A DNA stretch of 64,000 nt from positions 1,178,001 through 1,242,000 of the forward strand of contig NW_027590136.1 of assembly GCF_964213995.1 (NCBI RefSeq). The letters are read 5' to 3'. A program made the translations under genes and the position numbers. Shown piece by piece: positions 9,870 through 37,452 of this stretch (its first letter is position 1; the number at the start of each line of letters is the position of its first letter). Under the pieces are notes generated by a model. That model did no database searches. It was not told the DNA's origin and saw only the letters and a program-made list of their open reading frames with translations. The stretch is from Mustelus asterias (Eukaryota).

Positions 9870-12032
9870 AGAACAAAGAACAAAGAAAATTACAGCACAG
9901 GAACAGGCCCTTTAGCCCTCCAAGCCTGCACCGACTATGCTGCCCGACTTAACTAAAATCCCCTACCCTTCCGGGGACCATATCCCTATATTCCCATCCA
10001 ATTCATGTACTTGTCAAGACGCCCCTTAAAAGTCTCTACCGTGTCCACTTCCACTACCTCCCCCGGCAACGAGTTCCAGGCACCCATTACTCTCTGTGTA
10101 AAAAATCTCCCCCGTACATTGCCTTTAAACATTGCCCCTCGCACCTTAAACCTATGCCCCCGAGTAATTGACTCTTCCACCCTGGGAAAAAGCTTCTGAC
10201 GATCCGCTCTGTCCATGCCTCTCATAATCTTGTAGACTTCTATCAGGTCTCCCCTCAACCTCCATCGCTCCAGTGAGAACAAACCAAGTTTCTCTAACCT
10301 CTCCTCATAGCTAATGCCCTCCATACCAGGCAACATCCTGGTAAATCTTTTCTGTACCCTCTCCAAAGCCTCCACATCCTTCTGGTAGTGTGGCGACCAG
10401 AATTGAACACTGTATTCCAAGTGCGGCCTAACTAAGGTTCTGTAAAGCTGCAACATGCCTTGCCAATTTTTAAACTAATACCCCGGCCGATGAAGGCAAG
10501 CATGCCGTATGCCTTCTTGAGTACCTTCTCCACCTGCATTGTCACTTTCAGTGACCTGAATACCTGTACACCCAGGTCCCTTTGCCTATCAATACTCTTA
10601 AGGGTTCTGCCATTTACTGTATATTTCCTATCTGTATTCGACCTTCCAGAATGCATTACTCTCATTTCTCCAGATTAACCTCCATCAGCCATCTCTACGC
10701 CCAAGTCTCCAACTGGTCTATATCCTGCTGTATCCTCTGATGGCCCTCAGCACTATCCGCAAATCCACCAACCTTTGTGTTGTCCGCAAACCTACTAATC
10801 AATCCAGTTATGGTTTACTCCAAATCAATTTTATATATTACAAACCAAAGGTACCAGCACTGATCCCTGAGGAACTCCACTTGTCACAACCCTCCATTCA
10901 GAAGCGCAGCCTTCCACTGCTACCCTCTGTCTTTCTTTGGCCGAGCCAGTTTTGTATCCATCTTGCCACCTCACCTCTGCTCCCATGCGACTTCACCTCC
11001 TGCACCAGTCTGCCATGTCAGAACCTTTTCAAAGGCCTTACTGAAGTCCATGTAGACAACATTCACTGCCCTACCCTCATCAATCATCTTCGTCACTTCC
11101 TCGAAGAACTCGATCAAGTTCGTGAGACACGACCTCCCCTTCACAAAACCATATTGCCTCTCCTGAATACGTCCACTTTTTTCCAAGTGGGAATAAATCC
11201 TGTCTCGAAGAATCCTCTCCAATAATTTCCCTACCACTGATGTAAGGCTCACTGGCCTGTAATTACCTGGATTATTCTTGCTACCCTTCTTAAGCAAAGG
11301 AACAACATTGGCTATTCTCCAATCCTCTGGGACCTCCCCTGCACTTTAACCTGGTGTTGTTAAACTTCTTACTGTGTTTACCCCAGTCCAACGCCGGCAT
11401 CTCCACATCATGACCTCCCCTGCAGCCAGTGAGGATACAAAGATTTCTCTTAAGGCCCCAGCAATTTCCTCCCTTGCCTCTCTCAGTATTCTGGGGTATA
11501 TCCCATCAGGTCCTGGGGACTTGTCCACATTAACGTTTCTCAAGAACCCCAATACCTCCTCCTTTTTGATCTCAATATGACTCAAACTATCTACACATCC
11601 TTTCACAGAATCATTATCCACCAAGTCCTTCTCTTTGGTGAATACTGACGCAAAATACGCACTTACTATCTCGCCCATGTCCTCTGGCTCCACGCATAAA
11701 TTCCCTCCCTTGTCCTTGAGTGGGCCGACCCTCTCCCTGGCTACCCTCTTGCTCTTTATGTATGTATAAAAAGCCTTGGGATTTTCCTTAATCCTGTTGG
11801 CCAATGCTTTTTTATGACCCTCTTTAGCCCTTCTTACTCCTTGCTTAAGTTTCTTTCTACCTTCCTTGTATTCCACACTTGCTTCGTGTGTTCCCAGTCT
11901 CCTAGCTTTGATAAATACTTCCTTTTTTTCTCTTTGACTTGGCTCACGATATCTCTCGCTATCCAAGCTTCCCAAAACGTGCCATACTTATCCTTCATCC
12001 TTACAGGCATGTGCCTGTCCTGAATCCCTATC
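9870..12032 (-). mobile_element. 5'-truncated CR1 LINE with frameshifted ORF2 (RT)
   Basis: Minus-strand ORFs carry [21 protein letters not shown] and LYRTLVRPHLEY..QFWSP; (gaacaaa)n 3' tail at 9870-9886. Confidence 0.95.
11344..11411 (+). mobile_element. 68-bp Penelope-like 3' terminal insertion with a 13-bp target duplication
   Basis: Matches 37361-37428; flanked by gacctcccctgca at 11331-11343 and 11412-11424. Confidence 0.88.
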
Positions 12033-12379
12033 AAATTCCTCAATGAAAAGATGGGAATGCGATGATACAACCCACTGTACCCCCACTTCCTCAATGAAAA
12101 GACGAGGAATGTGATTATGTAACCCAGTGTAATTCCACCTCTTCAGTGGATAGAATCAAACCGGAAATTGCTTCACTGGCCAGAGAAGGGGAACTATGAG
12201 CTCATTAACCTCCCTCTCCCCAAGCAGAGTGTTTGGAAGGGAACGGCTCTCAACAATATGAGCTCAGTTGTGAACTGTAGCAAGTGGCTTCTGGTTTACT
12301 GGCCACAGATTATAAACTTCCATTATGCTAAACAGTCTATTAAAAATATATTTACAGAACATAATTTTGCATTTATACG

Positions 12380-13370
12380 TACATAGACAAACTATGCACA
12401 GACACAAAGACACCCACCCACAATGACACACATACACAAATAAAGATACGTATACACACACACACACAGACACACACATTCATACAAACAGATACACAAA
12501 TGCACACATAGGCACACACTTGCACAAACAGGCACAGAAACAAAGGCATACACACTAACACTCAAATACGTATGCACACGCGCACAGAAACGCACACACA
12601 TACATGAAAGCACACGCAAACATGCACATACACGAACAGGTACACAGACACACACACACACACACACACAAACACATATATACATATACACAAATACAGA
12701 GAGACACACATACATACAGATACGCACAAATACACAAACATATACTCATACAAATACAGGTAGATTAGCACACGTTCACGATGACAGAAATATAAACATA
12801 AAGACACACTGTCATAAACATTAATGCCCTTTCATGGACACACATGGTGGTAGATGAACCGAATATACACGGACACAGAAACATACAGATGAACAGGGAG
12901 CAAAACGTTCACATGAACACATGTAGACGCAAGCATTAACATACTCATACAGAAATAAATTCCATAACACACATTAATAGGCATGGAACCATAAACCCAC
13001 AACAACACATAGTTTTAAAGAACTATCATCTCTTAAGTTCGTACACTAACACACTGACTGACAGGGACAGAAAGGGAAGAAAACATGAATAGACTGGTAG
13101 ATATGTGTCATGCAAAAGAAGGATCAACAAATAAAGCATGCGTGAACGCATGCACACGCATGAACAGAGACATCAATAAACATAGACTTCACAAAACAAT
13201 GCAGTCATAGATACACAATGACAGAAGAATAAAATATGCACACAGACACACAAGTACACAAATCAATACGCAGAGGCACATGAGCACGTACATTAACACT
13301 CATACACGCAGATTAATTCAAATAGATGCTCATGCACACAATACACAAACGCGAAATCTTAAACACAAAC
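12380..13370. repeat. Degenerate (CA/TA)n low-complexity tract
   Basis: acacacatac-type repeats; the C/V-rich ORFs are artefacts. Confidence 0.85.
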
Positions 13371-13918
13371 GGCAGGCAATCGATAAAAGTAAAATTCAAC
13401 CGTAACGTTTTTAGTAGATATATCCACCGATAGCTGCCCGTATTATACAATGATCCGACAAATATGTGGAACCACTGGTCTTCCTGAGAAAGCGAATTAA
13501 GTTAATGATATACTAAGCATTTCCATCATAAATAAGCAAATAAGATGGAAACTCACATCCCAGCTTTACACAGCAACTATCATAGTTTAAAACAATTATC
13601 ATCGATCGTGAATGTTCCTCGATATCAATCATAACATTCCTCAGTAAGAGATAGTGCCAAACTGTTCGAAACAAACTGCTACTGAAGATATAATGCTGTG
13701 TGTTTCGACACAGCCTGTCTGTGGAATGTAAGGGAAGAACCGGTATGACGATAGTTATGGAGATCGGTTACTGAGTGTCCTGAACTTAATAGTGAATATA
13801 TTTTGAAAACTAAATTAGAGGATAAGTTAATGACTTAATAAAGAGAAAAGGGAAAATAAGAAGAACAACAAGATTCCCTGGATAAATTAAATAACCTGAT
13901 TTTATATCCGTCCTCTAG

Positions 13919-14040
13919 ACTCCACAGACCGCATCTGGACTGAAGGCAATGAGGATGATACCATCTGTACAACCGCTTCCACATTCATCTTCCTGTTCTC
14001 CCTGAGCATTTTCTACAGCACTGCTGTCACTCTGGTGAAG
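13919..14040 (+). CDS. IGHM: IgM TM1 (membrane) exon
   Basis: Acceptor tcctctag| and donor |gtgaga. In frame with the CH4 donor: DSTDRIWTEGNEDDTICTTASTFIFLFSLSIFYSTAVTLVK, retaining the CART-like TF..LF.LS.FYS..VT pattern. Confidence 0.93.
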
Positions 14041-14168
14041 GTGAGATGATTCAATTCACTCACACGTCAAACTGACAGAAAAATCTCAAAATTTCATTGA
14101 TTAAAAACTCCAACATAAATTTCCCAGAACATAAACATCTGTTTCATTATTTTATGTCTCTTTTCCAG

Positions 14169-14177
14169 ATCAAGTGA
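14169..14177 (+). CDS. IGHM: IgM TM2 exon coding part (IK*), giving a KIK cytoplasmic tail
   Basis: Strong acceptor tgtctcttttccag|ATC AAG TGA, 128 bp after TM1. Confidence 0.85.
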   Translation: MK

Positions 14178-14240
14178 TGGGTTGAATTTTGGATGCTATA
14201 GATTTCCTTCAGCTGATGACTAAAATCTCGGTATGACACA

Positions 14241-15540
14241 TTTAGAACTAAATAGTCTCATTAGCGATAGACAACATGGTTTTGTACGAGGGAGATCATG
14301 CCTCACAAATTTGGTTGAGGTTTTTGAGGAGGTGACAAAAATGCTTGACGAGGGAAGGGCCGTGGATGTCGTCTACATGGATATTAGTAAAGCATTTGAC
14401 AAGGTCCCTTATGGCAGGCTGGTGCAACAGGTTAAATCTCACGGGATCAAAGGTGAACTAGCTCGATGGGTACACAACTGGCTTGGTCATAGAAGACAGA
14501 GGGTAGTAGTGTGGAGGGGTCTTTTTCTGATTGGAGGTCTGTGACTAGTGATGTTCCGCAGGGCTCTGTACTGGGACCTCAGCTGTTTGTGATATATATA
14601 AATGATTTGGAAGAAGATTTAGCGAGTCTGATTAATAAGTTTGCGGACGACAGAAAGATTGCTAGAGTTGCGGATAGTGATGAACATTGTCAGAGAATAC
14701 AGCAGAATATAGATAGGCCGGAAAATTGGGCGGAGAAATGGCAGATGGAATTTAATCCAGATAAATGCGAAGTGATGCATTTTGGTAGATCTAATGCAGG
14801 GGGGAGCTATACAATAAATGGCAGAACCGTCAGGAGTATAGACACACAGAGGGATCTGGGTGTGCAAGTCCACAGATCCTTAAAGATGGCAACACAGGTG
14901 GAAAAGGTGGTGAAGAAGGCATATGGCATGCTTGCATTCATTGGACGGCGCACAGAGTATAACAGTTGGCATATGATTTTGCAGTTATATAGAACGTTGG
15001 TTAGGCCACATTTGGAATACTGCATCCAGTTCTGGTCGCCACACTACCAGAAGGACGTGTAGGCTTTGGAGAGAGCGCAGAAAAGGTTTACCAGGATGTT
15101 GCCTGGTATGGAGGGTATTAGCTATGAGGTCAGATTGAGTAAACGAGGGTTGTTCTCCCTGAAAAGGCGGAGATTGAGGGGCGACCTAATAGAAGTTTAT
15201 AAAATTATGAACGGCATAGATAGGATGAACAGTTGGAAGCTTTTTTCCCAGGTCGGAAATGACAAACACAAGGGGTCACAAGTTCAAGGTAAGGGGGGCA
15301 AGATTCAATTCAGATATGCGGGGGATGTATCTTACACAAAGTGTCGTGGGGGCCTGGAATGCACTACCAAGCAATGTGGTTGAGGCGGACACGCTAGGAT
15401 CATTTAAGATTTATCTAGATAGCCACATGAGCAGACTGGAATAGAGGGATACAAACGGATGGTCGAGTTAGGAACACATGATCGGTGCAGGCTTGGAGGG
15501 CCAAAGGGCCTGTTCTTATGCTGTATTGTTCTTTGTTCTT
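14241..15540 (+). mobile_element. 5'-truncated CR1 LINE in the 3' UTR of membrane IgM
   Basis: RT motifs ([27 protein letters not shown]) and a (tgttctt)n tail; tgacaca at both 14234-14240 and 15541-15547 is a probable target-site duplication. Confidence 0.93.
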
Positions 15541-15929
15541 TGACACAAATACAATATCTGCTCTCGGTGATTCCAGTTATCACAGTTTATCATTCCGCAC
15601 CTGCAATTTACACAACCGTGGTCGGTACTCCAGTTTTCAATATGAAATATGCGAGATAATTTTTGTTGTAATGTGAACTGTAGTTAATAGTTTCCCTGTA
15701 GTTGAAATTTAATGTATAAATAAATGAGTTTTCTCGTTATTTATCCACAGTTGTTCATTTCCCAATACGTTGAGCTCCTGTTTTCTGTTTCATGTGTCTC
15801 CTACAGTTGTACATATATTGGACAGCTCAGAGTTCATGTCTTCCGTTCTCAATGTGGAACGAAATCGTTATGTTCAATTTTGTGAACTTTAAAGTAAACT
15901 TTTCTGTAAAATGTTCCCTGATTTTTTAA

Positions 15930-15946
15930 AATAAATCTTGAATAAA
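15930..15946 (+). terminator. Likely poly(A) signals of membrane IgM mRNA
   Basis: aataaa at 15930-15935 and 15941-15946 followed by T/GT-rich sequence; another aataaa at 15719-15724. Confidence 0.6.
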
Positions 15947-16104
15947 AATTACCTCACTCTGGCTTTGCTTTACTCCTTTATCTAAAGTCCATCGGCACCG
16001 CTCCATTTTTCCGATTACACGGTTACCCCCTTTTCCCAGACAGGTGTTTTCCCCAGTCCTGTCTGGGATGTGTTTGAGCACAAGATCCTTCAGTGAAAGA
16101 ATCA

Positions 16105-16123
16105 CTGCGCCACCTAGCGACCC
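16105..16123 (-). promoter_or_regulatory. Candidate CTCF-binding motif
   Basis: Reverse complement GGGTCGCTAGGTGGCGCAG fits the CTCF core (C/T)C(A/G)C(C/T)AG(G/A)(G/T)GGCGC. Confidence 0.55.
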
Positions 16124-16359
16124 AGCTTTACCGCTGCCTTTCTTATGATAACCGTGATGCCGGCGGGCACAGTAAGAAGTCTCACAGTAAAAAGACTACT
16201 TCATTTTATGATAAACGCCAGCGAGAGAATGATTGAACAGTGAGGGGAATCTTGGTGATTTCCATCATAAACTGGTCTGTCACTGACGAGTGGCAGGTAT
16301 TTCAAAACAAAAAAAGGCTCTGCTTCATCAGAGGCCGATGTAGCACACTAAAAAGGAGA

Positions 16360-16850
16360 ATCATAGAATTCCACAATATAGAAGGAGGCCAGTTGGCCCA
16401 TCGATTCTGCACCATACACAATTCCACCCAGGCCCTATCCCCATAACTCCATGCATTTCCTCTTGCGAGTCACCAGCAGCAGTGCTAATCACTGTGCCAC
16501 CGTGCCTCCTGAAGAAGAAAACTTCCTTTACTCTGTCCTACTGGCTCTGCTGCCTTAGAGCACCATGGGTCCGGGTTCAATTTCGGCTTTGGGTCATTGT
16601 CTATGTGGAGTTTGCACATTCTCCCCATGTCTGCGTGGGTTTCCTCCGGGTGCTTCGGTTTCCTCACGCACTCGAAAGATATGTGGCTTAGCTTGTTTGG
16701 CCATGCTAAATTGCCCCGAGTGTCAGAGGGATTAGTAGGGTAAATACGTTGTTTTACGGGAAGCGGGCCGGGGTGTGATTGTGGTCGGTGCAGACCCGAT
16801 GGGCCAAATGGTCTCCTTTTGTTTTGTAGGTATTCTAAGATTCTATGATT
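16360..16850. mobile_element. Rearranged SINE fragments in both orientations
   Basis: Minus-strand tail and head pieces at 16360-16505; plus-strand SINE body at 16540-16850 ending ttctatgatt. Confidence 0.75.
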
Positions 16851-18061
16851 CGCTGACTAAAAAAGTCGTTGCAGCGTTGGTTATCAGATTAAATCTTTCT
16901 CCCTATTGCCGATTAAAAATTCCAAGTCAGACAAGCCACAGGCTAGATATAAAACACGGAGAGAACAGTGAGGTATTAACTATGGGGTGAAACCTAGCGA
17001 CTGGGACATTATTTGCACACACATATAATCGAGTCGACATTTTAAAATGATTACCAGAGTTTGGGGCATGTGATATATACAAGGGGAGAAAGCGCAGCAA
17101 TTTCCCGATGTGGGAACAACAAATAAATAGAAAACATGGGAAATATTCCCGGAGAAAGGGATTTATTCTGATACAGAGACTCCAGATTCGCATTTTCTCC
17201 GAAACACATGAAGATACATTTTGCTCCCCCTGTTCTACTCGACATGCACACGCTCAACTTTCTGGTGAACACACAGTGACTGCCGACTTCAAGCTTTCCT
17301 TTTTGTACCAATTAACACTGTCTCTATGATTCCTTTTCCGATTATGCATTATTCCCAATAAGCATCATTGCCTCTGACGCCACCTGGAATCACTGAATAT
17401 CACCCAAGGGATTCTCTCTCCCTGCTCCATTCACTCTGATAATATCTCCCTGTACACACTGAACATAACCCCAGGTATCTACCAGTGACCTTCAGACTTT
17501 CACGCCCTGAGCTTCCTGTCCACCTTCATGTAATTATGGTCTTCCACAGGCTGCCGATGATATGCGCATTTCCTGAGCATTCTGGACTGGCCCTCTTGGT
17601 TTTCCGACATTCTGTTTGGTGAGGATCAAAGCTTTTCATTCTAATGTACTGAAGTTCAGCTCCAGGCTATCGGTTGGTTACAGATCGTATCAAGTTAAGA
17701 GGGAGAAGAATTAACGTCTTACATGCGGGCTCAGCAGAACTTCTCTGAATGGTTATAGCTGATATTTAAGCTTTCTTTTGCTCGAACCCCTTTTAATCAT
17801 CACGTCCACCCACACAGCCATATGCCCACCAACCTCACTATGCTACTTTTACCTTAAGTTTACCTTATGTCTCGGTACTTTCCCCAGGCTCGGGAGCTCT
17901 CAAGATAGTTCAGAAGCCCTTAATGTTGCTAAGAGTTGACAACCATTCCCGTTGAATTGGAGGAACTGCAGCCGCAACCTCTGCCAGAACCATTGAAGAT
18001 TCAGCTATTGATTGACTCATAAAAAAACTGACATTACCACCGCTGAATCTCCAACCATCAA

Positions 18062-19845
18062 CATATAGAACATAGAACATAGAAAGCCACAGCACAAACA
18101 GGCCCTTCGGCCCACAAGTTGCGCCGATCACATCCCCACCTCTAGGCCTATCTATAGCCCTCAATCCCATTAAATCCCATGTACTCATCCAGAAGTCTCT
18201 TAAAAGACCCCAACGAGTTTGCCTCCACCACCACCGACGTCAGCCGATTCCACTCACCCACCACCCTCTGAGTGAAAAACTTACCCCTGACATCTCCTCT
18301 GTACCTACCCCCCAGCACCTTAAACCTGTGTCCTCTCGTAGCAACCATTTCAGCCCTTGGAAATAGCCTCTGAGAGTCTACCCTATCCAGACCTCTCAAC
18401 ATCTTGTAAACCTCTATCAGGTCACCTCTCATCCTTCGTCTCTCCAGGGAGAAGAGACCAAGCTCCCTCAACCTATCCTCATAAGGCATGCCCCCCAATC
18501 CAGGCAACATCCTTGTAAATCTCCTCTGCACCCTTTCAATGGCTTCAACATCTTTCCTGTAATGAGGTGACCAGAACTGCGCGCAGTACTCCAAGTGGGG
18601 TCTAACCAGGGTCCTATAAAGCTGCAGCATTATCTCCCGACTCCTAAACTCAATCCCTCGATTAATGAAGGCCAGTACGCCGTACGCCTTCTTGACCGCA
18701 TCCTCCACCTGCGAGGCCGATTTAAGAGTCCTATGGACCCGGACCCCAAGGTCCTTCTGATCCTCTACACTGCTAAGAATGGTACCCTTCATATTATACT
18801 GCTGCTTCATCCCATTGGATCTGCCAAAATGGATCACCACACACTTATCCGGGTTGAAGTCCATCTGCCACTTCTCCGCCCAGTCTTGCATTCTATCTAT
18901 GTCTCGCTGCAACTTCTGACATCCCTCCAAACTATCCACAACACCACCTACCTTCGTGTCGTCAGCAAACTTACCAACCCATCCCTCCACTTCCTCATCC
19001 AGGTCATTTATGAAAATGACAAACAGCAAGGGTCCCAGAACAGATCCCTGGGGCACTCCACTGGTCACTGACCTCCATGCAGAGAAAGACCCCTCCACAG
19101 CCACTCTCTGCCTTCTGCAGGCAAGCCAGTTCTGGATCCACAAGGCAACAGCCCCTTGGATCCCATGCCCTCTCACTTTCTCAAGAAGTCTTGCATGGGG
19201 GACCTTATCGAACGCCTTGCTGAAGTCCATATAGACCACATCCACCGCTCTTCCTTCGTCAATGTGTTTGGTCACATTTTCAAAGAACTCAACCAGGCTC
19301 GTAAGGCACGACCTGCCCTTGACAAAGCCGTGCTGACTACTTTTGATCATACTAAACTTCTCTAGATGATCATAAATCCTGTCTCTCAGGATCCTCTCCA
19401 TCAACTTACCAACCACTGAGGTTAGACTCACCGGTCGGTAATTTCCCGGGCTGTCCCTGTTCCCTTTCTTGAATATAGGGACCACATCTGCAATCCTCCA
19501 ATCCTCCGGAACCTCTCCCGTCTCCATCGACGATGCAAAGATCATCGCCAAAGGCTCCGCAATCTCCTCCCTCGCCTCCCACAGTAACCTGGGGTACATC
19601 CCATCCGGTCCCGGCGACTTACCAACCTTGATGCCATTCAATAGTTCCAACACATCCTCTTTCTTTATGTCCACATGCTCGATCCTTTCTGTCCACCGCA
19701 AACCAGCAGTACAACCACCCAGATCCCTTTCCACCGTGAATACCGAGGTAAAGTATTCATTAAGCAGCTCCGCCATTTCTAACGGTTCCGCACAAACTTT
19801 TCTCCCTTCACCTTTTAAGGGTCCTATGCCTTCACATCTCATCCT
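18062..19845 (-). mobile_element. Young 5'-truncated CR1 LINE with an uninterrupted RT/C-terminal ORF2
   Basis: ORF 18148-19887 has all RT motifs and no stop or frameshift, but no endonuclease domain; (catagaa)n tail at 18062-18083. Confidence 0.96.
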
Positions 19846-20138
19846 ATTGGGCTTACAATTGGCCAAAAACATAAATTGGCCGGCCACGCGAATTCTGTGG
19901 CTCCAAGATCACGTCGGAGGTGTTCCTTCAACAGTGACCCTCTGCCGCATAGAAGGACAAGGGCATCAGATTCATGGGATAAGCAGCATCAGGAGTTTCA
20001 AGTGAATGTCACTCACCATGCATAATTCGAAAGTTATCGCCGTCCCTTCATGTCGCTGGGTCAAAATCCTCGAATTCCCTCCCTCACAGCGCTGTGGATG
20101 TACCTACAACACGTGGACTGAAGCGGTTCAAGAAGGCA

Positions 20139-20494
20139 GTTCATCACCACCTTCTCAAGGGCAATTGCGGATGGGCAATAAATGCTGACTTAACAATTAT
20201 GCTCATCCCCAAAGAGTGATTTATTTAAACGGAACACCATAAATTGTAACTCCGATGCTGAATTATCACATGAGGGAAAACACACTCTCATAAAAGAATA
20301 TGCTGTTATGTATGAAAGCCGCTCTCGAAGATCTGACTTTCTCAGCAACGCGTTCTCTTCCATTTGATAATTCAGCATCGGAGTTACAATGTATAGTTCT
20401 CCAGGTAAAAAATCACTCCTAGGATATCACCATCGTTTGCAAGTCAGCATTTATTGCCCATCCTCAAGTGCCCTTGATAAGTTGGTGGTGAACT
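20139..20494. repeat. Long imperfect inverted repeat (fold-back) with a perfect 26-bp core
   Basis: attgtaactccgatgctgaattatca (20243-20268) is the exact reverse complement of 20365-20390; the outer arms include inverted LINE-tail sequence ggatgggcaataaatgctgactt. Confidence 0.88.
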
Positions 20495-23192: not shown

Positions 23193-23679
23193 CACACAGT
23201 CAGCGTACAGATATCACCGTGACAGAAAGGAAGCTGCAACATGTTGATGCGTTTAAAATATATTAATATATTCTGGAGAATGTGGGATTGAGATAATAGA
23301 CTGTTTCCATATAACTGGCTTTATTTCTTACAATGTAGTATTAGTTTCAATGAATTACTGCACTTAATCAAATCTGTCTTGTTGCAGGATTCAATTCCAA
23401 TTTGATCAATGCAGTTTTGCAGAGTAGCATCATATAAATCTTTCACATCTATTGACTTCCCACCAGTTTCGCAGACGAACTTCATTCAGTCTGAACGACT
23501 AAGATAAAATTAAGGTGTTCAACTGCGCCCTTCAAAGATCAATAATTTTGGAGTGCTTTTTTAACAATCTATCGACAATCTATCTTCTCATTTCCCCAAT
23601 TTTTATTCGTCAAGCTATCTATCTGCACATTTCCCCACGGTTTTGAACAACTGTTCTTTATTATTTGACAAAACACCAA

Positions 23680-24643: not shown

Positions 24644-25374
24644 CATGCTGAAAAAATGTGAACATGATTCGGATACCGACAGAGTCTAAGTAAATATCAC
24701 TTTCACATTATCCTCATTTTACTCAGAGAGAATGTGCTGATGTAAATTATAAACAGGCCTACCCTGTTTGGGCCAACGATGCGATAATAAAGCAATGAAG
24801 GCGAACTTAACTTTCGTGCATTCTCTTCAAACTTAGCCGTGCGTCTAGCTAGATATATTTTCTGCGTATTGTAAATGTGACATCATAACATTTACAGTAC
24901 GCATCTGACTCGGTCAGACAACAAGTTCTAAAATCTTTCGCGATTCAAAACAAATACAAAATCGCATTCTGTCCTCTACACTGACGCCACTGTTCGCCAC
25001 TCACGTGGAAATAAATGTTTTCTCTCACTTGCCTGCAACTTTTTCACTATAACTGTAACCGTTAGGAAATCTATGGTCATGGGACAAGGTGTTACATCTC
25101 AGCGCCTGATCATGCTAAGCAATAGCCCACTGTTACTGATTAGCTAATTCAGCTACCTGGAGGCAATGGTTCCAGACCCAGTATGTGCAGCTCGATGATC
25201 ACATAGGGAAATCAGCTGCCACCTTCGTCCAACTCCTGGAATGTGCATGGGATAACACCAACCTGATCCTTGAGACTAAACTGATTGTTTTAAGGCCTGT
25301 GTTCTTCACACCTTCACTTATGGATGGGAGATATCGCATACCTACAGCGACCCGGAAATGTAATACCACAGGAT

Positions 25375-27000
25375 CATGAGACGTGGCAACATAAGTAGGC
25401 CATTCGGTCCATTGACTCGGCTCCGTCATTCAGTGAGATCATGAGTGATCTGATAATCATCAACTGCACTTTCCCACCTTATTCCTAGATGCCTTTACTT
25501 ATTAAAAATATGTCTATCTCAGCCTTGAACATAATTAAAGACCTCGGTCATACCATTCTCTACGGCAAGGAATTCCGCAGATTCAATACCCTCTGAGAGA
25601 TTTATTTTCTTCATCCCTGTCTTAATGGGCGACTCCTCACTTTCAGATTATGCCATCTGGTCCCAGACTCTCTCACAAGGAGAAACAAACTCTCAGCACT
25701 TACCCAATAAAAAAAACTCTGAGAATCCTCTATGGCTCAGTAATGTCACCTCTAATTCTTCTAAACGCCAATAAGTTCAAAGCCAGCCTCTTCTCGTAAG
25801 AACATCCCTCCATATTCCGAGCGACTTCAATTAACATTCTCTGGACTGCATCCAATGCTACGTCCAATCTTTCCTTACATAAGGGAACCAAAATTGTTCA
25901 CAGTATTCTAAGTATGTTCTGCTGGTGCCTTGCATAATTTTAGTAAGACTTCCTTATAATTATACTCCACCCCTGTTGAAGTAAGGACCAACATTCATTT
26001 TGCCTTCCCTATTACTTGCCAAATTTTTGTGCTAGCCTTTTGCGATATATAACCAAGACCTCTAGATCATTCTTTGCTTCAGCATTCTGTAGTATTTGTG
26101 CCATTTAAATAATCTGTCTCTCGTTCATTTTTCCTGCTAAAGTTCATAAGTTCACTCTTTCCTATATTATATTCCATCGTCCAAGTTGTTGTTCACATAC
26201 TTAACCTGTCTGAATCCCTCTCTGAACACTTGGCATCCTCACCCTTGCCTTTAGGCCTATTTTTGTGTTATCTGCATACATGGCAATAGTACATCCACTT
26301 CCGTTTTCCCACTCATGAAATATTGTAAATAATTGTGGAGCCAGCACTGTTCCCTGTGGCATTCCACTATTTACAGGCTGTCAACCTCAAAATGCCCCTT
26401 TTACCCCAACTCTCTTTCTTCTGTTATTAATTCCCTATTTTCTCTTACCCGTTACTCATTTTTCTTTCCATGTTAATATATTAACCCCAGGGCATAATTT
26501 TCGCAAGACTTCCTTATAATTACACTCAATCCCTTTTGAAGTAAAGGCCAAATTCATTTTGCCTTCCCTATTACTTGCACTTACCCTATAAAGTTACCCT
26601 TTGTGTGGTCCCTTATCAAAAGCATTTTGGGAATCCAAATATTATTAAAGATGCTGGTTCCCCTTTATCTATGTTGCTCGTTAATATCTCAAAGGTTTCT
26701 AATGCATTTGTGAGGCACGATTTCCACATTATGGTGCCGTACTGACTGTGGTTGAATATAATAGGTAATTCTAAAGAGTCTACATTCATTATAACTGATT
26801 CTAACGTGTTCCCAACAACAGATGTCAAGCTAACTGGGAGATAGTTACCGTTTTTGTCTCCCTCCCTTTCTGAATAAGAGTGTTTCATTGGCAGTTTTCC
26901 AATCTTCTTAGACTTTTCGCGACTTTAAGGAACCTTGACAGATTAGAATCAATGCATTCACTATCTCTGCAACTTCGTCATTTAGGATGCAACCCATTAC
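25375..27000 (-). mobile_element. Old CR1-type LINE
   Basis: Minus-strand ORF has [12 protein letters not shown] and KSCLTN; the 3' end aagtaggccattcggtcc lies near 25395. Confidence 0.8.
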
Positions 27001-27759
27001 GCCCAGAGACTCAGTGGCCTTTATTTAACCCCTCAAGCTCGACATGTTCGCTGCCTTTATTGCATACTGTGTATGTAGTGGCAAGAGAGAATCACAGATG
27101 AGACTATCCTCTCAGTCACATTATCGGAAAAGCGTTAGGGTAGATGGTGGCCCCATAACCAAGAACGTTGTTGGTCGTGAGGTGGCCGGAGCCAGATGAC
27201 CAACTGGGCGTCATATTTTCAATTTCAGTGAAGCTTTCAAAGTTTTATTTTGTACATCATTTATTGCCCTTGCATTGACTGGCCACTTCAGAGGGCATTT
27301 GAGATTCAACTGCAGACCTGGATCCAGGAGTCACGTGTAGGTCAGCTTATTGCTGAATCAGTTGGGTTTTTACATCGATCGACAATGTTTTGAAGATCAT
27401 CATTAAACTTCTGTTTGAATTCAAATTTTACCATGTGCCACGGTGGGAATCGATCCCGGCTTCTCAGCGGATTACCTCGACTTTAATTATTATTCGTCTC
27501 GTTTCAATTCCATTACTCCATTGCCCCTCTTCCTGACTATCCATTTTAAGTGGGTCACTTCGTCATTTTTTAAAAAATGCCCCTTTAAAGGATTGTGAGC
27601 TTGTTAATTCCATTCAAGGAGCTACATAGATGCGCATTGCTATTACGGATATCACAAATAAAATTTTGCATTTACTTTTCACTAGAAAAATAGATGAAAA
27701 TTAAAGAGTTAATGGTGGAGTGTCAAAATAAATGCAAGTTATGAAGACTGCACCGCTTT

Positions 27760-28115
27760 GGACGGCATGGTAGCACAGTGTTCTCACTGCTGCCTCAGAG
27801 CTCCAGGGGCCCTGATTCCATTCCGGCCTTGGGTGTTTGTCTCTGTGGAAATTGCACATTCTTCCATTGTCTATGTGGGTTTCTTCTGGGTGCTCCGGCT
27901 TCCTCCCACAGTGCAAAGATGCGCAGGTTAGTCAACATGCTAACTTGCCCCGAATATGCAGTTTAGCAGGATTAACCATTGCAACCACGCTGGCTCATGA
28001 GGATACGGCGAAATGGAGGAACTGGGTGAAATGCTTCTTATAAAGTCGGTGCACACTCGATTGGCTGAATTGTCTCCTTCTGAACTTTAGAGATTGCATG
28101 ATGATTCTATGATTC
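27760..28115 (+). mobile_element. tRNA-derived SINE (diverged)
   Basis: ggacggcatggtagcacagtg head and ttctatgattct tail. Confidence 0.8.
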
Positions 28116-29373
28116 TAGAGGATATTGTTTAAATATAAAAGGTCTTCCGTTCCAGACGAAGCTGAGAACTTTTTTCTCCCTCAGAGTGTCATTGGCATTT
28201 AAAAGTTTCGTCCTCAGAAAGCAATATGTCTTGGTCATTGTACTTAACCATAAGAAATGGAGCTTAAAATATCATTCGCCCATCGAATGTGATCCGCCAT
28301 TTAATGAGATCATGACTGATTAGATACGACAATCCTCAACTCCACTCCCCTCGCCCCTCTCATGCCCATAACCCTTTATTCGAGGCTGAGTTGAATAGAT
28401 GTTTTCATCGGCAAGGGAGTAGAGGGATATGGAGAACAGATGGGATAGTAGATGTGAAATAAGAACAAAACTTGCCATGATCTTTTCGAGCAGAATAAAG
28501 TGCTGATTGGTCTGCTTCTGTTCCGAAATCCGACAGTTTTAGGTTCCAATGACTGATTTGCAAGTAGGCAGGCACCCTCTGGATATATACGACCTGTTCA
28601 GGTTTGAATGTTTGGAGGTTTTCGAGAGAAACAACCATCGCAATGTCTCCTTCAGTCTGGCGTCGTTTTAGTAGAGATCATCCGGGGTATTTACGTGATG
28701 GAGGCTTTAACGCATATTGCTACTTATCATCTGATTAGCATAGCAAGAGGCTAAGTAAGGATTCTATCCTCAAGTAAATAGTGTACACTATGGATTAGGA
28801 TGTTTTCTCGCCTTGTTTCTATTTAGCGTTTTTTCTTGACAATTGGTTTGCAAAGTTTAGCATCTGAATTAAGAAATTAATTACTCATTACAGACACTTT
28901 GTGGAGTCTTTCATTTTTTTAACATCTAGCACAATTGAGACCGGAGTTATTGTGGTCGACTTTGCACTTGACTTTCTCTTCTCGGTCCTGGGTGGAAATA
29001 AATCGGGATTCGAACAGTTAGCCGAGAAGATAGAGACATACATGTACTGACATAGATGCTACTGCATTAGGAAGCAATGTGTGAATGTCTGTAACGTCCA
29101 TATGCACGAAAAGTATCGCAGGTTTATGAGAAAATATGTGTATTTTCAGAGATCCATACTGATTGATAAACGGATAGATATGCCTAAACAGGTGATAGTA
29201 AGAATGAGGTTTTCCTAGGCACTTCAAAGCCCCATTGAAATCGATTGGTACATAGCTAAAGAGTAAGGGGGCGGGGGTGGTAGTGAGAGTGAGGAAAAGA
29301 CCGAGGGAAAGAAAAAGACTGAGATGCAAAAATTAATTTACATTGGAATTAACAAATAAGAGAGGAACAAACA

Positions 29374-29960
29374 ATAGAACATAGAACATAGAACATAGAA
29401 CATTACAGCGCAGAACAGGCCCTTCGGCCCACGATGTTGCACCGACCAGTTAAAAAAAAAACTGTGACCCTCCAACCTAAACCAATTTCTTTTCGTCCAT
29501 GAACCTATCTACGGATCTCTTAAACGCCCCCAAACTAGGCGCATTTACTACTGATGCTGGCAGGGCATTCCAATCCCTCACCACCCTCTGGGTAAAGAAC
29601 CTACCCCTGACATCGGTTCTATAACTACCCCCCCTCAATTTAAAGCCATGCCCCCTCGTGCTGGATTTCTCCATCAGAGGAAAAAGGCTATCACTATCCA
29701 CCCTATCTAAACCTCTAATCATCTTATATGTTTCAATAAGATCCCCTCTTAGCCGCCGCCTTTCCAGCGAAAACAATCCCAAATCCCTCAGCCTCTCCTC
29801 ATAGGATCTCCCCTCCATACCAGGCAACATCCTGGTAAACCTCCTCTGCACCCTCTCCAAAGCCTCCACATCCTTCCTGTAATGTGGGGACCAGAACTGC
29901 ACACAGTACTCCAAGTGCGGCCGCACCAGAGTTGTGTACAGTTGCAACATAACGCTACGA
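29374..29960 (-). mobile_element. Young CR1 3' fragment
   Basis: Open 157-aa C-terminal ORF2 segment; (catagaa)n tail. Confidence 0.93.
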
Positions 29961-30624
29961 CTATAGAGTTAAGAAACACCTTCCACAGCGGATGAATTAC
30001 ATTAAATAATTTAAATATTGCCAAGGTCGTTCAATGTTTGTTTGCAGTTCATGTTGGCAACATGGAAAATGTTCCATGTCACACTCAGGATATGGAAATC
30101 TTAGTGTCTGCTGACATCCGATCGACTGCACGCCAAGCACGGGTATCGGTGTCTCTGATAATATAGTGGGGGTTAAATATGATGGAGAATAGATCTCACT
30201 CTGTGTTGTGAAGTGATATGCTGCAATTGGAAACTACAGTTTGAAGTGAAATAATAGATGTAAATAAAATGAACATATGTGTCTGCACTGACACTTGATT
30301 TTCTGTCGGGTGGGACGGGGAATGCGAGTTTTTAATTATAAAATGTCTGCTTTAGGGCTGCCGTGGACTCGGTTCACAAAGTTTGTGACAATAAGATCTG
30401 AGCAACTACACTCACCCCTCCCATCAGAGAGACAATCCGTTCACCCTCAGTTTTTGGTCATAGATTGAGCAACTGATCCAGGAGATGTGGGGAGTGGGAT
30501 TGCTCTGCAGGGATGCTGGAGGGTTGAGTAAAAGCCTGAGCTCGTGCCCAATTTAATAACTATCCCAGATAATTGATTGTATCCCCTCTGTCTGCACTGT
30601 ACTGGGCCCCAGGCCAAAAGTCCA

Positions 30625-31275
30625 AAGAACAACGAAAATTACAGCACAGGAACAGGCCCGTCGGCCATCCAAGGCTGCACTGACAGTGCTCCCGACTGAA
30701 CTAAAACCCTGTACCCTTCCGGAGACCGGATCCCTCTATTCCCATCCTATTCATGTATTTGCCAAGATGTCCTGTATACATCACTACCTCCCCCGGCTGC
30801 GAGTTCCAGGCACCCATCAACTTCTGTGTAAAAAAACATGCCTCGTACATCTCCTTTAAATCTTGCCCCTCGCACCTTAAAACTATGCCCCCTAATAATT
30901 GACTCGTCCATCCTGGGAAAAAGCTTCAGACTATCCAATCTTTCCATGCCCCTCATAATTTGTAGACTTCTATCAGGTTATCCCTCAAGCTCCGTCGTTG
31001 CAGTGAGAAGAAACCAAGTTTCTCCAACCTCTCCTTATAGCTAATGCCCTCCATACCAGGCAACATCCTGGTAAATCTTTTCTGTACCCTCTCCTAAGCC
31101 TCTACATCCTTCTGGCAGTTTGGCGACCAGTATTGAACACTATATCCTAAGTGCGGCCTAGCTAAGGTTCTAAAAAGCTGCAACATGACTTGCCAATTTT
31201 TAAACTCAATGCTCTGTCCGATGAAGGTAAGCATGCCGTATGCCTTCTTGATGACCTTCTCCACCTGTGTTGCAA
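30625..31275 (-). mobile_element. CR1 3' fragment
   Basis: Similar to 9880-10540. Confidence 0.88.
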
Positions 31276-31830
31276 TATTTGAAACACTTTCGGATGCATA
31301 TCAGCAATGACATCCAAAGTTATTATTGGGAGGTGCTGGAGAAGCGTATGACATGGACAGAGTTATTGGGCAAACAACAGCTCAGGAAATATAAATAGGT
31401 GTGATCCCAACAGTTCCACTTGGTAGGCGGGCGAATATGTCCCTGAAAGGTCTCACTTTCAATTCTACATTCCGTCAAACCGATTTTTCACAATTAAACA
31501 GAATCATCTGTTCCATTTCCTCAGCACAGTTCCAGAAAAAAGAGCATATTACTTGAGTCCTGAGGAGTACGAGAGCCACGAAGAGAAAGGTAGGTGGAAA
31601 TTGGAACCGCCATAGAAACACGCAGAGTTTGAAAGTGGGCAAATAAGCAGTGTCAATTATAGCGAGAAAGTATGGCCGAATGGAGAAATAGATTGGTCAG
31701 CAGAGAATGTGGATGGCCGTGTAGAGAATGCGATTGAGAGTAAAGAGCAGAAGTATGAGGCAAATTAAACACGGTATTAGGGATTAACAGAAAGAAGATT
31801 AAACGAAGAAGAAGCAGCATGAAACACACA

Positions 31831-31972
31831 NNNNNNNNNNNNNNNNNNNNNNNNNNNNNNNNNNNNNNNNNNNNNNNNNNNNNNNNNNNNNNNNNNNNNN
31901 NNNNNNNNNNNNNNNNNNNNNNNNNNNNNNNNNNNNNNNNNNNNNNNNNNNNNNNNNNNNNNNNNNNNNNNN
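31831..31972. other. Assembly gap (142 N)
   Basis: Run of N. Confidence 1.
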
Positions 31973-32249
31973 GATATCCTGGAGATTTTCGTTCCACGTG
32001 TTAGATTTGATTGTTGATCTTGTCAAGGAAAAATCTGCCGCTCTGAACAGTTCTCAACAGTAACGATTCACAACATGAGGAATGTGACCTGATGGTTTTC
32101 ATGAGAGAGACCACGTGAGTGTGAAGAAATACAGGAAAACATTGACACCAGCCACTATACAGATGTTCGCCTCTGCGTGTGTGGAAAGAAACATAGAAAA
32201 CGATATGCACATTTATTCCTAAAGCAGTGAGACTGAGGAAGAACAGTCT

Positions 32250-33150
32250 GCGTAAAGGTAACTTCATGTGAGAGAGGGACCTTACAGACAGTGTTCAATA
32301 CCTCCAATAGAGAGAGAAAACCTAAAATCTCCAGCCATTGTGAAGGTATCTCCTTGACAGAGAAGATTGTGCGACACCGTTCAGGGAACAGAGTGAGAGA
32401 GGGTTGACAGACTCCATTCAGTGCATAGATTTCACCCTCAGAGAGAGAGTCTGAGAGGCAGCAGTCGGTGCACTGGTAGTTCCGTGAGGGAAAGGGGACT
32501 GAGAGCAACCAGTCAGTGTATGGATATCTTCCTGAGAGAGAGAGGTTCTGAAAAACACAGGTCACAGTGCATATACCTCCCTGAAAGAGAGGGGGGACTG
32601 AGGGACAACAGTCAGTTTACAGATATATCCCTGGGAGAGAGAGAGGGGCTGGGAAATAGCTGTCAGTCTACAGATAGGTATCTGCATGAGAGCGTGGGGC
32701 TGAGACCCAACCATATGTGTGCGGCTATTTTTCTGCAAGAGTGGCACGGAGAGAGACCAGTACGTAACTATTTCTCCAGGGAGCAGGTAGGCTAACACAA
32801 ATAAATCTCCCTGTGAGAATAAATCAGCCAGTGTTCAAAACTCTCCCCTAAGGAGGCACTCTGAGAGAGTTTGGTTAATATACAGTTGTCTTCTTGAGAG
32901 ACAGGCATTGAGCGACGCAGGGCAGTGCGCACAATTCTTCCTGAAGTGAGGAACTGATATGCACGAGTCATAATGTCACTATTTTCATGACTGGATCGCA
33001 CTGAGAGGCCGATCAGTTTGCAAATGCCTGAAATGTAAAGGCGAACGAAAATCGACATTGAGCAGTTATCTTCCTGAGGGAAAGAGACTGAGGCAGAGGA
33101 TGAAACAGAGATTCGGGAGACAACAGTCCATGTAGCCATATCGCCATTAG
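32250..33150. repeat. Degenerate ~50-bp minisatellite
   Basis: The motif cctgagagagagagggactgagagacagcagtcagtgtatagatatct recurs at about 32480, 32531, 32580 and 32630. Confidence 0.7.
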
Positions 33151-34779
33151 AGAAGAGAGTAACAAACAGAAATCAGAGAACAGAAAAACTTAGGAGAAAT
33201 TTAGAACTACACCAGATTTTCCAGATAGCTCACTTTCCAACATCCAAGATGACTTTCCTTTCAGTTCTTGAATAACTAAAGTCACAGAATCACATAATAC
33301 GACAGTGCAGAAGAGTCCCTTCGGCCCATCGAGTTCGCAGCGACGCATTAAAGGCCCTGACCTGCCCACCTAATCCCACTTGGCCCATACCCGTAAATAT
33401 TATGGCGCGCCAAGTGCACATCCAGGTACTTTTTTTAAAGAATGTGAGACAATATGCTCCCATCACCCTAACAGCCAGTGCATTCCAGGCTGTCACCACC
33501 CTCTGGGTAAGAAACGCTTTTCCTCAAATCCCCCCCGAAATCTCCCACTCCTCATTTTTAACTTGTGTCCCCTCTTAACTGACCCTTCAACTAAGGGGAG
33601 CAGCTGTTCCTTATCCACACTGTCCATGCCCCTCATCACCTTGAACACCTCAATCAGGTTGCTCCTCAGTCTACTCTGTCCGAGAGAAAACGACCCAAGC
33701 CTATCCAACCTCTGTTTCTAACTTAAATGTTCCTTCCCCGGCAACATCCTGGTGAATCTCCTCTGCACCCCTTCCAGTGCGATCACGTCCTTCCTATAAT
33801 GTGGCGACCAGAACTGCACACAGTACTCCAGCTGTGGCCTCATCAAAATTCTGTGCAACTCCATCATGAACTCTCTGCTTTTGTAATCTATACCCCGATT
33901 GATGAAGGCGAATGTGCCATATGCCTTTTCACCACTCTTTTAACCTAATTTTTCGCCTTCAGAGATCTATGGACAAACACCAATGTCCCTTTGTCCTACG
34001 AAACTACCCAGCGTCAGACATTTCATCGGATACTTCCGTGTCAATTTACTCCTTCCAAAGTGTACCACTTCACACTTTTCAGGGTTAAATTCTATCTGTC
34101 ACTTATCTAGCCATTTGACCATCTCGTCTATATCTTCCTGTGTCCCAAGACACTCAGCCTCATTGTTAACCGCACGGCCAAGTTTTGCATCATCCGCAAA
34201 CATACTGATCCTATCCCCACATAGTCATCTGTGTCATTTATATGACTGACGAACAATAGGGAGACCAGCATGAATTCCTGTGGTACGCCACTGGTCACTG
34301 GCCTCCAGTCACTAAAGCAGCCGTCTGTGGTCACCCTCTGTTTCCTTCCGCTAAGCCATTTATGAATCCACCTGAGCTGATCACCTTGTATCCCATGTGC
34401 ATTTGCCTTCTTAATAAGTCTCCGATGTGAGACGTTGTCAAAGGCTTTGCTGAACTCCATGTAAACTATCCCAACCGCACTACCCTCATCTATACACTTG
34501 GTTACATGCTCAAAAAATTCAAAAACATTCGTTCGGCATGAACTCCCTCTGACAACCCTTGCTGACTATCCCTGATCAAACTTTCCTCTCCAAATGGAGA
34601 TAGATTCCCTCCTTTACAATCTTCTCCATTGGTTTCCCAACCAGAGACCTGGCTTGTCTCTGCAACCTTTCATAAATAACGGGATCACATTAGCTGTCCT
34701 CCAGTCCTCTGGCACCTCCCCGGTGAAAAGTTTAACAACACCAGGTTAAAGTCCAACAGGTTTATTTGGTAGCAAAAGC

Positions 34780-34816
34780 CACAAGCTTTCGGAGCCTTAA
34801 GCTCCTTCTTCAGGTG
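34780..34816 (-). ncRNA. Minimal type I hammerhead ribozyme motif (inverted copy)
   Basis: Reverse complement cac-CTGAAGA-aggagc ttaag gctcc-GAAAGCTT-gtg. Confidence 0.7.
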
Positions 34817-37295
34817 AGTGGGAATTCTGTTCACAAACAGGGCATAGAAAGACACAAACTCAATTTACAGAATAATGGTTGGAATGTGAATACGGACAGC
34901 TAATCAAGTCTTAAAAGTACAAACATTGTGTGTCGAGAGAGCATTAAGCCAGGTTAAAGAGATGTGTATTGTCTCCAGACAGGACAGCCAGTGAGACTCT
35001 GCAGGTCCAGGCAAGCTGTGGGGATTACAGATAGTGTGGCATGAACCCAATATCCCGGTTGAGGCTGTCCTCATGTGTGTGGAACTTGGCTATCAGTTTC
35101 TGCTCAGCGACTCTGCGCCGTCGTGTGTCGTGAAGGCCGCCTTGGAGACTGCTTACCCAAATATCAGAGGCCGAATGCCCGTGACCGCTTAAGTGCTCCC
35201 CAACAGGAAGTTTACAGTCTTGCCTGGCGATTGTCGAGCGATGTTCATTCATCCGTTGTCGCAGCGTCTGTATGGTTTCCCCAATGTACCATGCCTCGGG
35301 ACATCCTTTCCTGCAGCGTATCAGGTAGACAACGTTGGCCGAGTTGCAAACGTATGTACCGTGTACCTGGTGGATGCTGCTCTTACGTGAGATGATAGCA
35401 TCTGTGTCGATGATCCGGCACGTCTTGCAGAGATTGCTGTGGTAGGGTTGTATGGTGTCGTGGTCACTATTCTCCTGAAGGCTGGGTAGTTTGCTGCGGA
35501 CAATGGTCTGTTTGAGGTAGCACCCTCCGTGCTCTCATCCCACGTACTGGAGATCTCTACTGCCTCCTGAAGATACACAAGGCAAACACACCCGTCCGTC
35601 CCATCGTATCGGGCAATGGGACCCTGTGCGAGAACCTCTCCGGCTATGTCGAAGACATCCTAAAACCCATTGTACAAAGAACCCCCAGCTTTTGTCGCGA
35701 CACTACGGGCTTCCTACAGAAATTCGGCACAGATGGAGCAGTTGAACCAGGAGCGCTCCTCGTCACAGTGGATGTCTCGGCACTCTACACCAGCATCCCC
35801 CACGATGATGGCATTGCTGCAACGGCGTCAGTGCTCAGCGCCGACAACTGCCAGTTTCCAGATGCAATTTTACATCTCATCCGCTTCATCCTGGACCACA
35901 ATATCTTCACCTTCAACAACCAGTTCTTCATCCAGACACACGGAACAGCCATGGGGACCAAATTCGCACCTCAATATGCCAACATCTTCATGCACAGGTC
36001 CGCACAGGACCTTCAACCGATTTTTCTTCCTTTGGACTCATGGTGAACAATCACAGAAACAACTCTATGATGGCATCAACAAGTTCCATCCTACCATCAG
36101 ACTCAGCTTGGACTACTCTCCGGAATCGGTTGCATTCTTGGACACACGCATCTCCATTAAGGATGGTCACCTCAGCACCTCACTGTACCGCAAGCCCACG
36201 GATAACCTCACGATGCTCCACTTCTCCAGCTTCCACCCTAAACACGTTAAAGAAGCCATCCCCTATGGACAAGCCCTCGTATACATAGGATCTACTCGGA
36301 TGAGGACGATCGCAACAGCCACCTCCAGACGCTGAAAGATGCCCTCATAAGAACAGGATATGGCGCTCGACTCATCGATCGACAGTTCCGACGTGCCACA
36401 GCGAAAAACCGCACCGACCTCCTCAGAAGACAAACACGGGATACGGTGGACAGAGTACCCTTCGTCGTCCAGTCCTTCCCCGAAGCGGAGAAGCTACGGC
36501 ATCTCCTCCGGAGTCTTCAACATGTCATTGATGAAGACGAACATCTCGCCAAGGCCATCCCCACACCCCCACTTCTTGCCTTCAAACAACCGCGCAACCT
36601 CAAACAGGCCATTGTCCGCAACAAACTACCCAGCCTTAGGAGAACAGTGACCACGACACCACACAACCCTGCCACAGCAACCTCTGCAAGACGTGCCGGA
36701 TCATCGACACAAATACCCTCATCTCACGTGAGAACACCATCCACCAGGTACAGGGTACATATTCTTGCAACTCGGCCAATGTTGTCTACATGATACGCTG
36801 CAGGAAAGGATGTCCCGAGGCATGGTACATTGGGGAAACCATGCAGACGCTGCGACAACGGATGAATGAACACTGCTCGACAATCACCCGGCAAGTCTGT
36901 AAACTTCCTGTTGGGGAGCACTTAAGCGGTCACGGGCATTCGGCCTCTGATATTCGGGTAAGCGTTCTCCAAGGCGGCCTTCACGACACACGACTGCGCA
37001 GAGTCGCTGAGCAGAAACTGATAGCCAAGTTCCAGACATGAGGACAGCCTCAACCGGGATATTGGGTTCATGCCACACTATCTGTAATCCCCACAGCTTG
37101 CCTGAACCTGCAGAGTCTCACTGGCTGTCCTGTCTGGAGACAATACACATCTCCTTAACCTGGCATAATGCTCTCTCTACACACATTGTTTGTACTTTTA
37201 AGACTTGATTAGCTGTACGTATTCACATTCCAACCATTATTCTGTAAATTGAGTTTGTGTCTTTCTAAGCCCTGTTTGTGGACAGAATTCCCACT

Positions 37296-37332
37296 CACCT
37301 GAAGAAGGAGCTTCAGGCTCCGAAAGCTTGTG
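37296..37332 (+). ncRNA. Minimal type I hammerhead ribozyme motif in the Penelope terminus
   Basis: cac (stem I)-CTGAAGA-aggagc ttcag gctcc (stem II)-GAA AGCT T (palindromic stem III and cleavage site)-gtg (stem I'). Confidence 0.72.
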
Positions 37333-37452
37333 GCTTTTGCTACCAAATAAACCTGTTGGACTTTAACCTGGTGTTGTTAAACATCTTCCTGTGTTTCCCC
37401 AGTCCAACGTCGGCATCTCCACATCATGACCTCCCCTGGCCAGAGAGTAATT

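Follow-up and report, generated by a model that had tools for sequence, protein, structure and literature searches.

A Penelope-Like Element of the Shark Mustelus asterias Probably Inserts at a Symmetric Two-Part Target That Also Accounts for a Hot Spot in CR1

Why should two Penelope-like elements (PLEs), very different in size, occupy the same position in two diverged copies of another retrotransposon? The question is raised by a 64,000-nucleotide (nt) stretch of the genome of the shark Mustelus asterias (hereafter the window; GCF_964213995.1, contig NW_027590136.1, positions 1,178,001 to 1,242,000, forward strand), in which one and the same element end, ...CATCATG, is joined to the word ACCTCCCC at 11412/11413 (locus 1) and again at 37428/37429 (locus 2). 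The hosts are copies of a long interspersed nuclear element (LINE) that encode reverse transcriptase (RT) and that we take to be CR1, following the first-pass annotation. Both right junctions were located in the sequence as that annotation had placed them, and translations put both insertions in the antisense of the codons G-E-V-P-E-D-W-R. It had proposed a PLE family that prefers a LINE, a transposon parasitising another transposon; Tx1L is among the retroelements aimed at other transposons. How PLEs choose and cut their targets, and why inverted arms and tails remain, is an open question (PMC8557442; PMC11167929). Our findings support another answer for this locus: the family most probably inserts genome-wide at the centre of a symmetric motif, (C/A)TG-N16/17-CA(G/T), with a 12-13-bp duplication, the GEVPEDW codons being hot probably through one of the best matches to this motif and not through recognition of CR1.

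The possibility that ACCTCCCC is the element's own terminus was ruled out. Intact copies run on past the junction as ATG ACT ACC ATC GAC, and ACCTCCCC stands next at one of the first 30 ends; the word is therefore target, not element. The 18-nt element end has 33,803 exact matches in the genome, 68 of them followed by ACCTCCCC-N40-H (about 88 after correction for H; about 0.5 for a random 8-mer), nearly all at the GEVPEDW site of CR1. The site 20-mer has 5,711 genomic occurrences, filled sites included, and in the orientation opposite to the window's 240 ends were counted no more than 12 nt away from it, where 0.39 would be expected, an excess of about 600-fold over chance. About 90 further ends lie at the site in the window's orientation. 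The genome total is about 38,800 ends, obtained with a 13-nt anchor from 8,778 ends with C at +41 divided by a C fraction of 0.226. At least 4.2% of the GEVPEDW sites are filled in the opposite (sense) orientation and about 1.8% in the window's (antisense) one, the highest occupancy measured. The GEVPEDW position is thus a real hot spot, and in this the first-pass annotation was right: flanking sequence is non-random, the word common to both junctions belongs to the target and these codons are preferred. At one locus (C10:410789-410855) a pair of oppositely oriented PLE ends stands tail to tail around the site.

Recurrent nesting at the same base of a repeat need not imply targeting. By exact patterns, about 340 of the 38,800 ends (about 0.9%) are at the GEVPEDW site, and we estimate its share of all ends at 1-2%. 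As an unselected sample, 152 ends were taken within the initial 33 Mb of contig C1 (100 matches from the head of the list, 50 loci conditioned on an A 46 nt downstream, and further ends in these loci); one of them is at GEVPEDW. Nine of the 152 fall in CR1, at nine different positions, against 72 of 1,320 background tiles from 200 kb of evenly spaced DNA scored with the same window-derived references and criteria (p=0.85, Fisher); for the abundant short interspersed nuclear element (SINE) the counts are 9 of 152 and 105 of 1,320 (p=0.43). These values give no sign of an overall preference for CR1 or the SINE. Insertion at GEVPEDW is base-precise, recurrent and independent, as is the mark of target-specific retroelements; two further marks of such elements, most copies at one site of one repeat and enrichment of the host repeat, are absent from this PLE. 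Both orientations are used at the site, the one opposite to the window's being commoner. Because 98-99% of ends lie elsewhere, CR1 is unenriched, both orientations occur and the symmetric motif covers both of the CR1 hot spots described here, LINE targeting as such is not supported, the site taking about 1-2% of about 39,000 ends. Insertions of this kind are also prone to homoplasy as phylogenetic markers in sharks. Copies of the SINE carry recurrent PLE insertions of their own at two positions (about 30-51 and 162-163 of the window copy), the first in both orientations (loci L005, L021, L083, L115, L015 and L101).

What the insertions prefer is a mirror-like motif, first noticed on 60 loci. 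Duplications of at least 9 bp, with modes at 12 and 13 bp, accompany 79 of the 152 ends, and (C/A)TG-N16/17-CA(G/T) is centred on the duplication in 47 of these, six shifted controls giving 0, 1, 1, 1, 1 and 0. The strict CTG/CAG form is found in 31 of the 79, and the spacer is 16 bases in 29 sites and 17 in 19. Modally, two bases separate CA(G/T) from the duplication on either side (40 on the right, 34 on the left), and the central columns of the target matrix hold little information. Minor spacer classes of 21 and of 12 (7 sites each) were also observed. Microsatellite or AT-rich targets were not seen among the listed sites.

The motif can be put to the test of prediction. In the CR1 majority sequence a second perfect site was predicted at the codons N-W-L-x-x-R-R-Q-R, and 212 ends are present on its 15,661 sites, with 1.1 expected; the junction lies mostly at the predicted base, two bases inside CTG, and a sub-class is shifted 7 nt along the element, where element and target match by three bases. 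A TTG-N17-CAG site about 120 bp from GEVPEDW in the same family (its 19-mer exact in 12 of 30 hot-spot hosts) carries 0 ends; picked as a non-dyad control, it turned out to be a near-dyad, and its zero was not set against a genome-wide site count. By a matrix trained on 45 other insertions, the two CR1 hot-spot members excluded, GEVPEDW scores in the 99.2-99.9th percentile when set among 1,324 background dyads. From the 18 edge columns of this matrix, occupancies of 3.3%, 1.35% and 1.7% are predicted for the sense, antisense and second sites, where 4.2%, about 1.8% and 1.35% are observed. Since the matrix predicts the observed occupancy within a wide error, CR1-specific recognition is not needed.

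The hot spot might nonetheless be explained the other way round, with the family adapted to the CR1 ORF2 (second open reading frame) GEVPEDW codons as a safe haven and the genome-wide motif a relaxation of that specificity. The roughly 600-fold enrichment, the filling of at least 4.2% plus about 1.8% of sites (about three times the second site in the same orientation), the striking of several CR1 families at the same base and the place of GEVPEDW near the top of the general matrix, as expected of an original target, all suit this account, as does the under-prediction of antisense ends by the all-column matrix. Yet only some 1-2% of ends are at the site, CR1 is unenriched, the central spacer columns are poor in information, and the second CR1 site and the SINE sites are repeatedly struck as well, while homologous CR1 sites lacking a half-site are empty in the window (two cases only); we consider the safe haven very unlikely. 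Less credible still, and already largely refuted, is the idea that a CR1 copy already bearing a PLE was amplified, by segmental duplication or as a chimeric master, and so inflated the hot spot. Duplicated pairs do exist, and of 30 hot-spot loci in each orientation, 6 (sense) and 12 (antisense) have no left host half within 1.5 kb; however, missing left halves are no commoner than among unselected ends (73/152), both orientations and several host families are involved, insert lengths differ in all of the 24 and 18 loci that retain the left half, and the downstream flanks of the 60 loci are at most 95.2% identical (median 88.8%). Together with the divergence of the two window hosts (about 66% identity), these lengths and flanks rule out a single duplicated insertion behind both loci, which are independent, in clearly diverged copies, as had been claimed.

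Several observations weigh against the two-part target as we propose it. The full motif is absent from 32 of the 79 duplicated sites, 73 of the 152 ends were unscored (no duplication of at least 9 bp, or tandem read-throughs), and all unbiased ends stem from the first 33 Mb of one contig. Five of 100 ends among the matches listed (four of them independent) were at GEVPEDW, above the 0.9% from exact patterns; in another set none was visible among the 100 matches listed. The matrix is loose, its sense prediction spanning 0.6-7.9% (5-95% bootstrap, about tenfold), and with all 26 columns it gives 1.8% for sense and 0.23% (0.02-0.6) for antisense, below the observed value of about 1.8%. A residual boost specific to CR1 or to chromatin may therefore act at GEVPEDW.

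The ends of the insertions bear on how the target is cut and copied. Right junctions cluster at positions -4 to +3 relative to the ATG, and their homology to the element amounts to 2.1 nt (0.5 in controls; n=47); for left junctions the values are 1.5 and 0.46 nt (n=41). An inverted arm accompanies 106 of the 152 ends, and 73 of the 79 with a duplication, and mostly begins 30-46 nt before the element end. Ten of the 73 inverted arms are at least 100 nt longer than the direct arm, which argues for a priming event of their own, since fold-back of the direct arm cannot yield such a product. Subfamily markers agree between the arms of 79 of 81 insertions (shuffled mean 34; a looser first pass, with some arms mis-paired, gave 88 of 95), and in 12 pairs the two arms of one insertion are 95-100% identical, against about 88% to other copies. 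One template or locus thus usually serves both arms; two unrelated RNAs per insertion, as a rule, are ruled out by the 79 of 81. Many inverted and direct arms end 85-145 nt from the element end, around a hammerhead-like motif, a peak confounded by BLAST breaks between subfamilies.

In the usual geometry of target-primed reverse transcription, the bounds of a duplication mark the positions of the nicks. As the duplication is bounded two bases inside each half-site, the nicks would lie at 5'-^NNCAG on both strands. We lean toward a two-fold symmetric machine, in which a dimer would read CTG-N16/17-CAG, make a 12-13-nt staggered cut and let both overhangs prime on the element RNA at two fixed starts. 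Each strand would be nicked two bases 5' of CAG, leaving 12-13-nt 3' overhangs; the bottom-strand 3' end would prime reverse transcription on the element RNA at the start codon of its open reading frame (ORF), and the top-strand 3' end would prime 30-46 nt upstream, making the inverted arm, with the offset as the tail. Pairing of about 2 nt between each overhang end and the RNA would set the register and add to site choice. If this is true, the inverted arm, the tail and the duplication of PLEs all follow from a single reaction. The protein is predicted to dimerize through N-terminal helices: modelled as two copies, its N-terminal 340 aa score 0.48 (best of three controls, 0.01), with interface residues 42-80, a partner pLDDT (predicted local distance difference test) of 61-62 and at least 20% of contacts in agreement between runs. 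The mark for this score is reached by 21 of 30 solved homo-pairs and by 0 of 23 single chains (17 of 29 and 0 of 30 among eukaryotes).

The same target could instead be cut stepwise by a single tethered endonuclease, the inverted arm arising by fold-back or template jumping on the first complementary DNA (cDNA). GIY-YIG homing endonucleases are monomeric nickases (PMC8557442) and self-priming has been proposed for inverted PLE structures (PMC3846280); one template serves both arms in 79 of 81 insertions, and many arms end near the same inner point. On the other side stand the inverted arms at least 100 nt longer than the direct ones (10 of 73), the homology to the element of the top-strand end at left junctions, the arms of different subfamilies in 2 of 81 insertions, the fixed mirror spacing and the dimer model, and we find stepwise cutting rather improbable. 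Three points nevertheless count against the symmetric dimer. A single source template is as compatible with fold-back (PMC3846280) as with double priming, and the dimer is predicted from a fragment, without alignment and with a low pLDDT. Moreover, PAc, a Poseidon element of Anolis carolinensis, parallels the proposed machine in that both strands are reported to be cleaved, the tail lies between two internal RT starts and a dimer is predicted (PMC11167929); yet it cleaves ATT and primes without homology in vitro, whereas the shark element has spaced CAG half-sites and about 2 nt of homology.

The insertions belong, as first annotated, to Penelope elements with a GIY-YIG endonuclease, to judge by RT and GIY-YIG matches, tandem pseudo-long terminal repeats (pLTRs), inverted arms and duplications. 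In three of 20 fetched candidates an 892-aa ORF is open; it encodes RT, followed by a C-x4-C-x2-C linker and by a GIY-YIG domain of CCHH type (by sequence, two Cys within the GIY-YIG motif and two His after it). The protein matches RVT_1 (E=1.7e-9), and its model (mean pLDDT 92) has structures of TERT, the telomerase RT, as best fold matches; PF01541 (GIY-YIG) is matched by window positions 36640-37041 (E=3.3e-5), with no PF01541 report on the whole protein. The C-x4-C-x2-C ahead of the endonuclease (EN) fits the CX2-5CxxC linker defined for Neptune and common to Nematis (PMC8557442), and by the definitions given there the element would be a Neptune- or Nematis-type EN+ PLE. Sharks, turtles, echinoderms, ticks and lancelets have homologs of it, unnamed or uncharacterised, and the closest one with a name is a shark protein (94% across half its length). 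Locus L183 holds 2,991-bp tandem units, in keeping with a tandem pLTR organisation, and shows that insertion ends coincide with the ORF start codon. This locus, with at least three near-identical units (99.6%), and the open 892-aa ORFs (L233, L234, L240) suggest recent activity of the family. In the pLTR of locus 2, a minimal hammerhead-like motif (CTGA-GA, stem II, GAAA; 37296-37332, plus strand) was picked out by eye from the consensus; it has no Rfam match at E<=1 and is not the minimum-energy fold. The element's terminus recurs, together with a hammerhead-like core, in a 198-bp tandem unit (L090:2300-2700), a retrozyme-like non-autonomous derivative of this PLE (cf. bioRxiv 10.64898/2026.07.22.740005).

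Both window sites are perfect CTG-N16-CAG. All coordinates here are on the plus strand unless stated. At locus 1, the half-sites CTG (11327-11329) and CAG (11427-11429) enclose the two copies of a 12-bp duplication, ACCTCCCCTGCA (11332-11343 and 11413-11424), and between these lies a 5'-truncated PLE 3' end of 69 bp (11344-11412; 68 if a shared G is assigned to the duplication), without inverted arm, 93% identical to the end of locus 2 and closing on the ORF start codon ATG. It breaks host ORF2 copy 1 (minus strand, 10146-12010, ends approximate, by translations and self-BLAST) at the G-E-V-P-E-D-W codons. At locus 2, CTG (34709-34711) is followed by the 12-bp left copy ACCTCCCCGGTG (34714-34725; the same site is present in locus L031), whereas two bases are missing from the right copy (37429-37438), after which come two spacer bases and CAG (37441-37443), which completes the stretch 37429-37443. 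The left junctions are where the annotation had put them, while the duplication is really 12 bp, and the left copy of locus 2 two bases longer than claimed. The 2.7-kb insert comprises an inverted arm (34726-35521, minus strand; GIY-YIG region and pLTR, without the last ~45 nt, the tail), 94.6% identical over 792 bp to the direct arm, with a GIY-YIG match just under the Pfam cut-off (E=4e-4), and a 5'-truncated, frameshifted direct arm (35528-37428) with RT (RVT_1 E=1.9e-6, just under cut-off), linker Zn finger, GIY-YIG (E=3.3e-5), pLTR, tail and ATG. Host ORF2 copy 2 (33401-34725, minus strand, start approximate; RVT_1 E=1.1e-8) belongs to a family other than that of copy 1 (~66%).

Empty homologous sites are found in a third CR1 copy (ATG-N16-CGG, without right half-site; about 19476-19533, minus strand) and in a fourth (TTG-N16-CAG, with an imperfect left half-site; 48215-48236). 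Of two older fragments said to lie off the site, that at 4784-4904 is indeed an older PLE end (75% identity) outside CR1, and near 16155 there are only PLE-end words seen by eye, with no BLAST match. A tRNA-type SINE (about 37453-37790, minus strand) breaks the host CR1 some 10 bp past the right half-site of locus 2, and CR1 continues near 37793. The 3' part of a CR1-type ORF2 at 18148-19908 (minus strand), open for 586 aa (RVT_1 E=3.6e-34), is a young copy. The locus 2 insertion is followed downstream, after about 900 bp, by an intronless open ORF of a rhodopsin-family G-protein-coupled receptor (GPCR; 38354-39385; 7tm_1 E=7.8e-31), and a second GPCR-like ORF fragment (56695-57519, minus strand; 7tm_1 E=5.7e-9) is possibly a pseudogene.

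How does the shark element compare with known systems? In L1 twin priming, a second nick primes an inverted cDNA within one duplication, each arm copies its own part of the RNA and the second site can lie anywhere. The two arms of the shark element instead overlap, with the second start held at 30-46 nt from the first. Neptune and Nematis EN+ PLEs (PMC8557442) are alike in their single ORF with RT, CX2-5CxxC linker and CCHH GIY-YIG, and in their tandem pLTRs, inverted 5'-truncated arm, 30-40-nt tail and duplication; as described there, they have a microsatellite or AT-rich bias and a variable duplication, whereas the shark element has a CTG/CAG mirror motif and 12-13 bp. PAc (PMC11167929) likewise cuts and extends both strands, leaves a tail between two RT starts and is a predicted dimer with an N-terminal helical interface, but its starts lie 111-118 nt inside the ORF, whereas the shark element starts at the AUG; Poseidon is also without the linker Zn finger that the shark element has. 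Target-specific retroelements (PMC4640811), such as the PLE-X of spike-moss 28S (PMC8557442), share repeated insertion at one base of a multicopy sequence, yet such families put most copies at the site, and the shark PLE 1-2%, in both orientations and with the host repeat unenriched. The GIY-YIG homing endonucleases I-TevI and I-BmoI (PMC12774661) also have a short, tolerant cleavage motif read by the nuclease domain; theirs is CNNNG, the two nicks are separated by two bases and binding uses a long site of its own, as opposed to the mirror half-sites and 12-13-base stagger of the shark element. From tens of thousands of insertions, a cut geometry and priming registers emerge that are testable with a defined 22-bp substrate and intact 892-aa ORFs. 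In the passages covered of the open full-text literature on PLE targets (including PMC8557442, PMC11167929, PMC3846280, PMC3681739, PMC4640811, PMC9977147, PMC12774661 and bioRxiv 10.64898/2026.07.22.740005), we found only AT-rich, microsatellite, telomere and 28S targets and no spaced mirror motif. Set beside these systems, the shark PLE appears new in its symmetric bipartite target, the CR1 site being probably a by-product of it.

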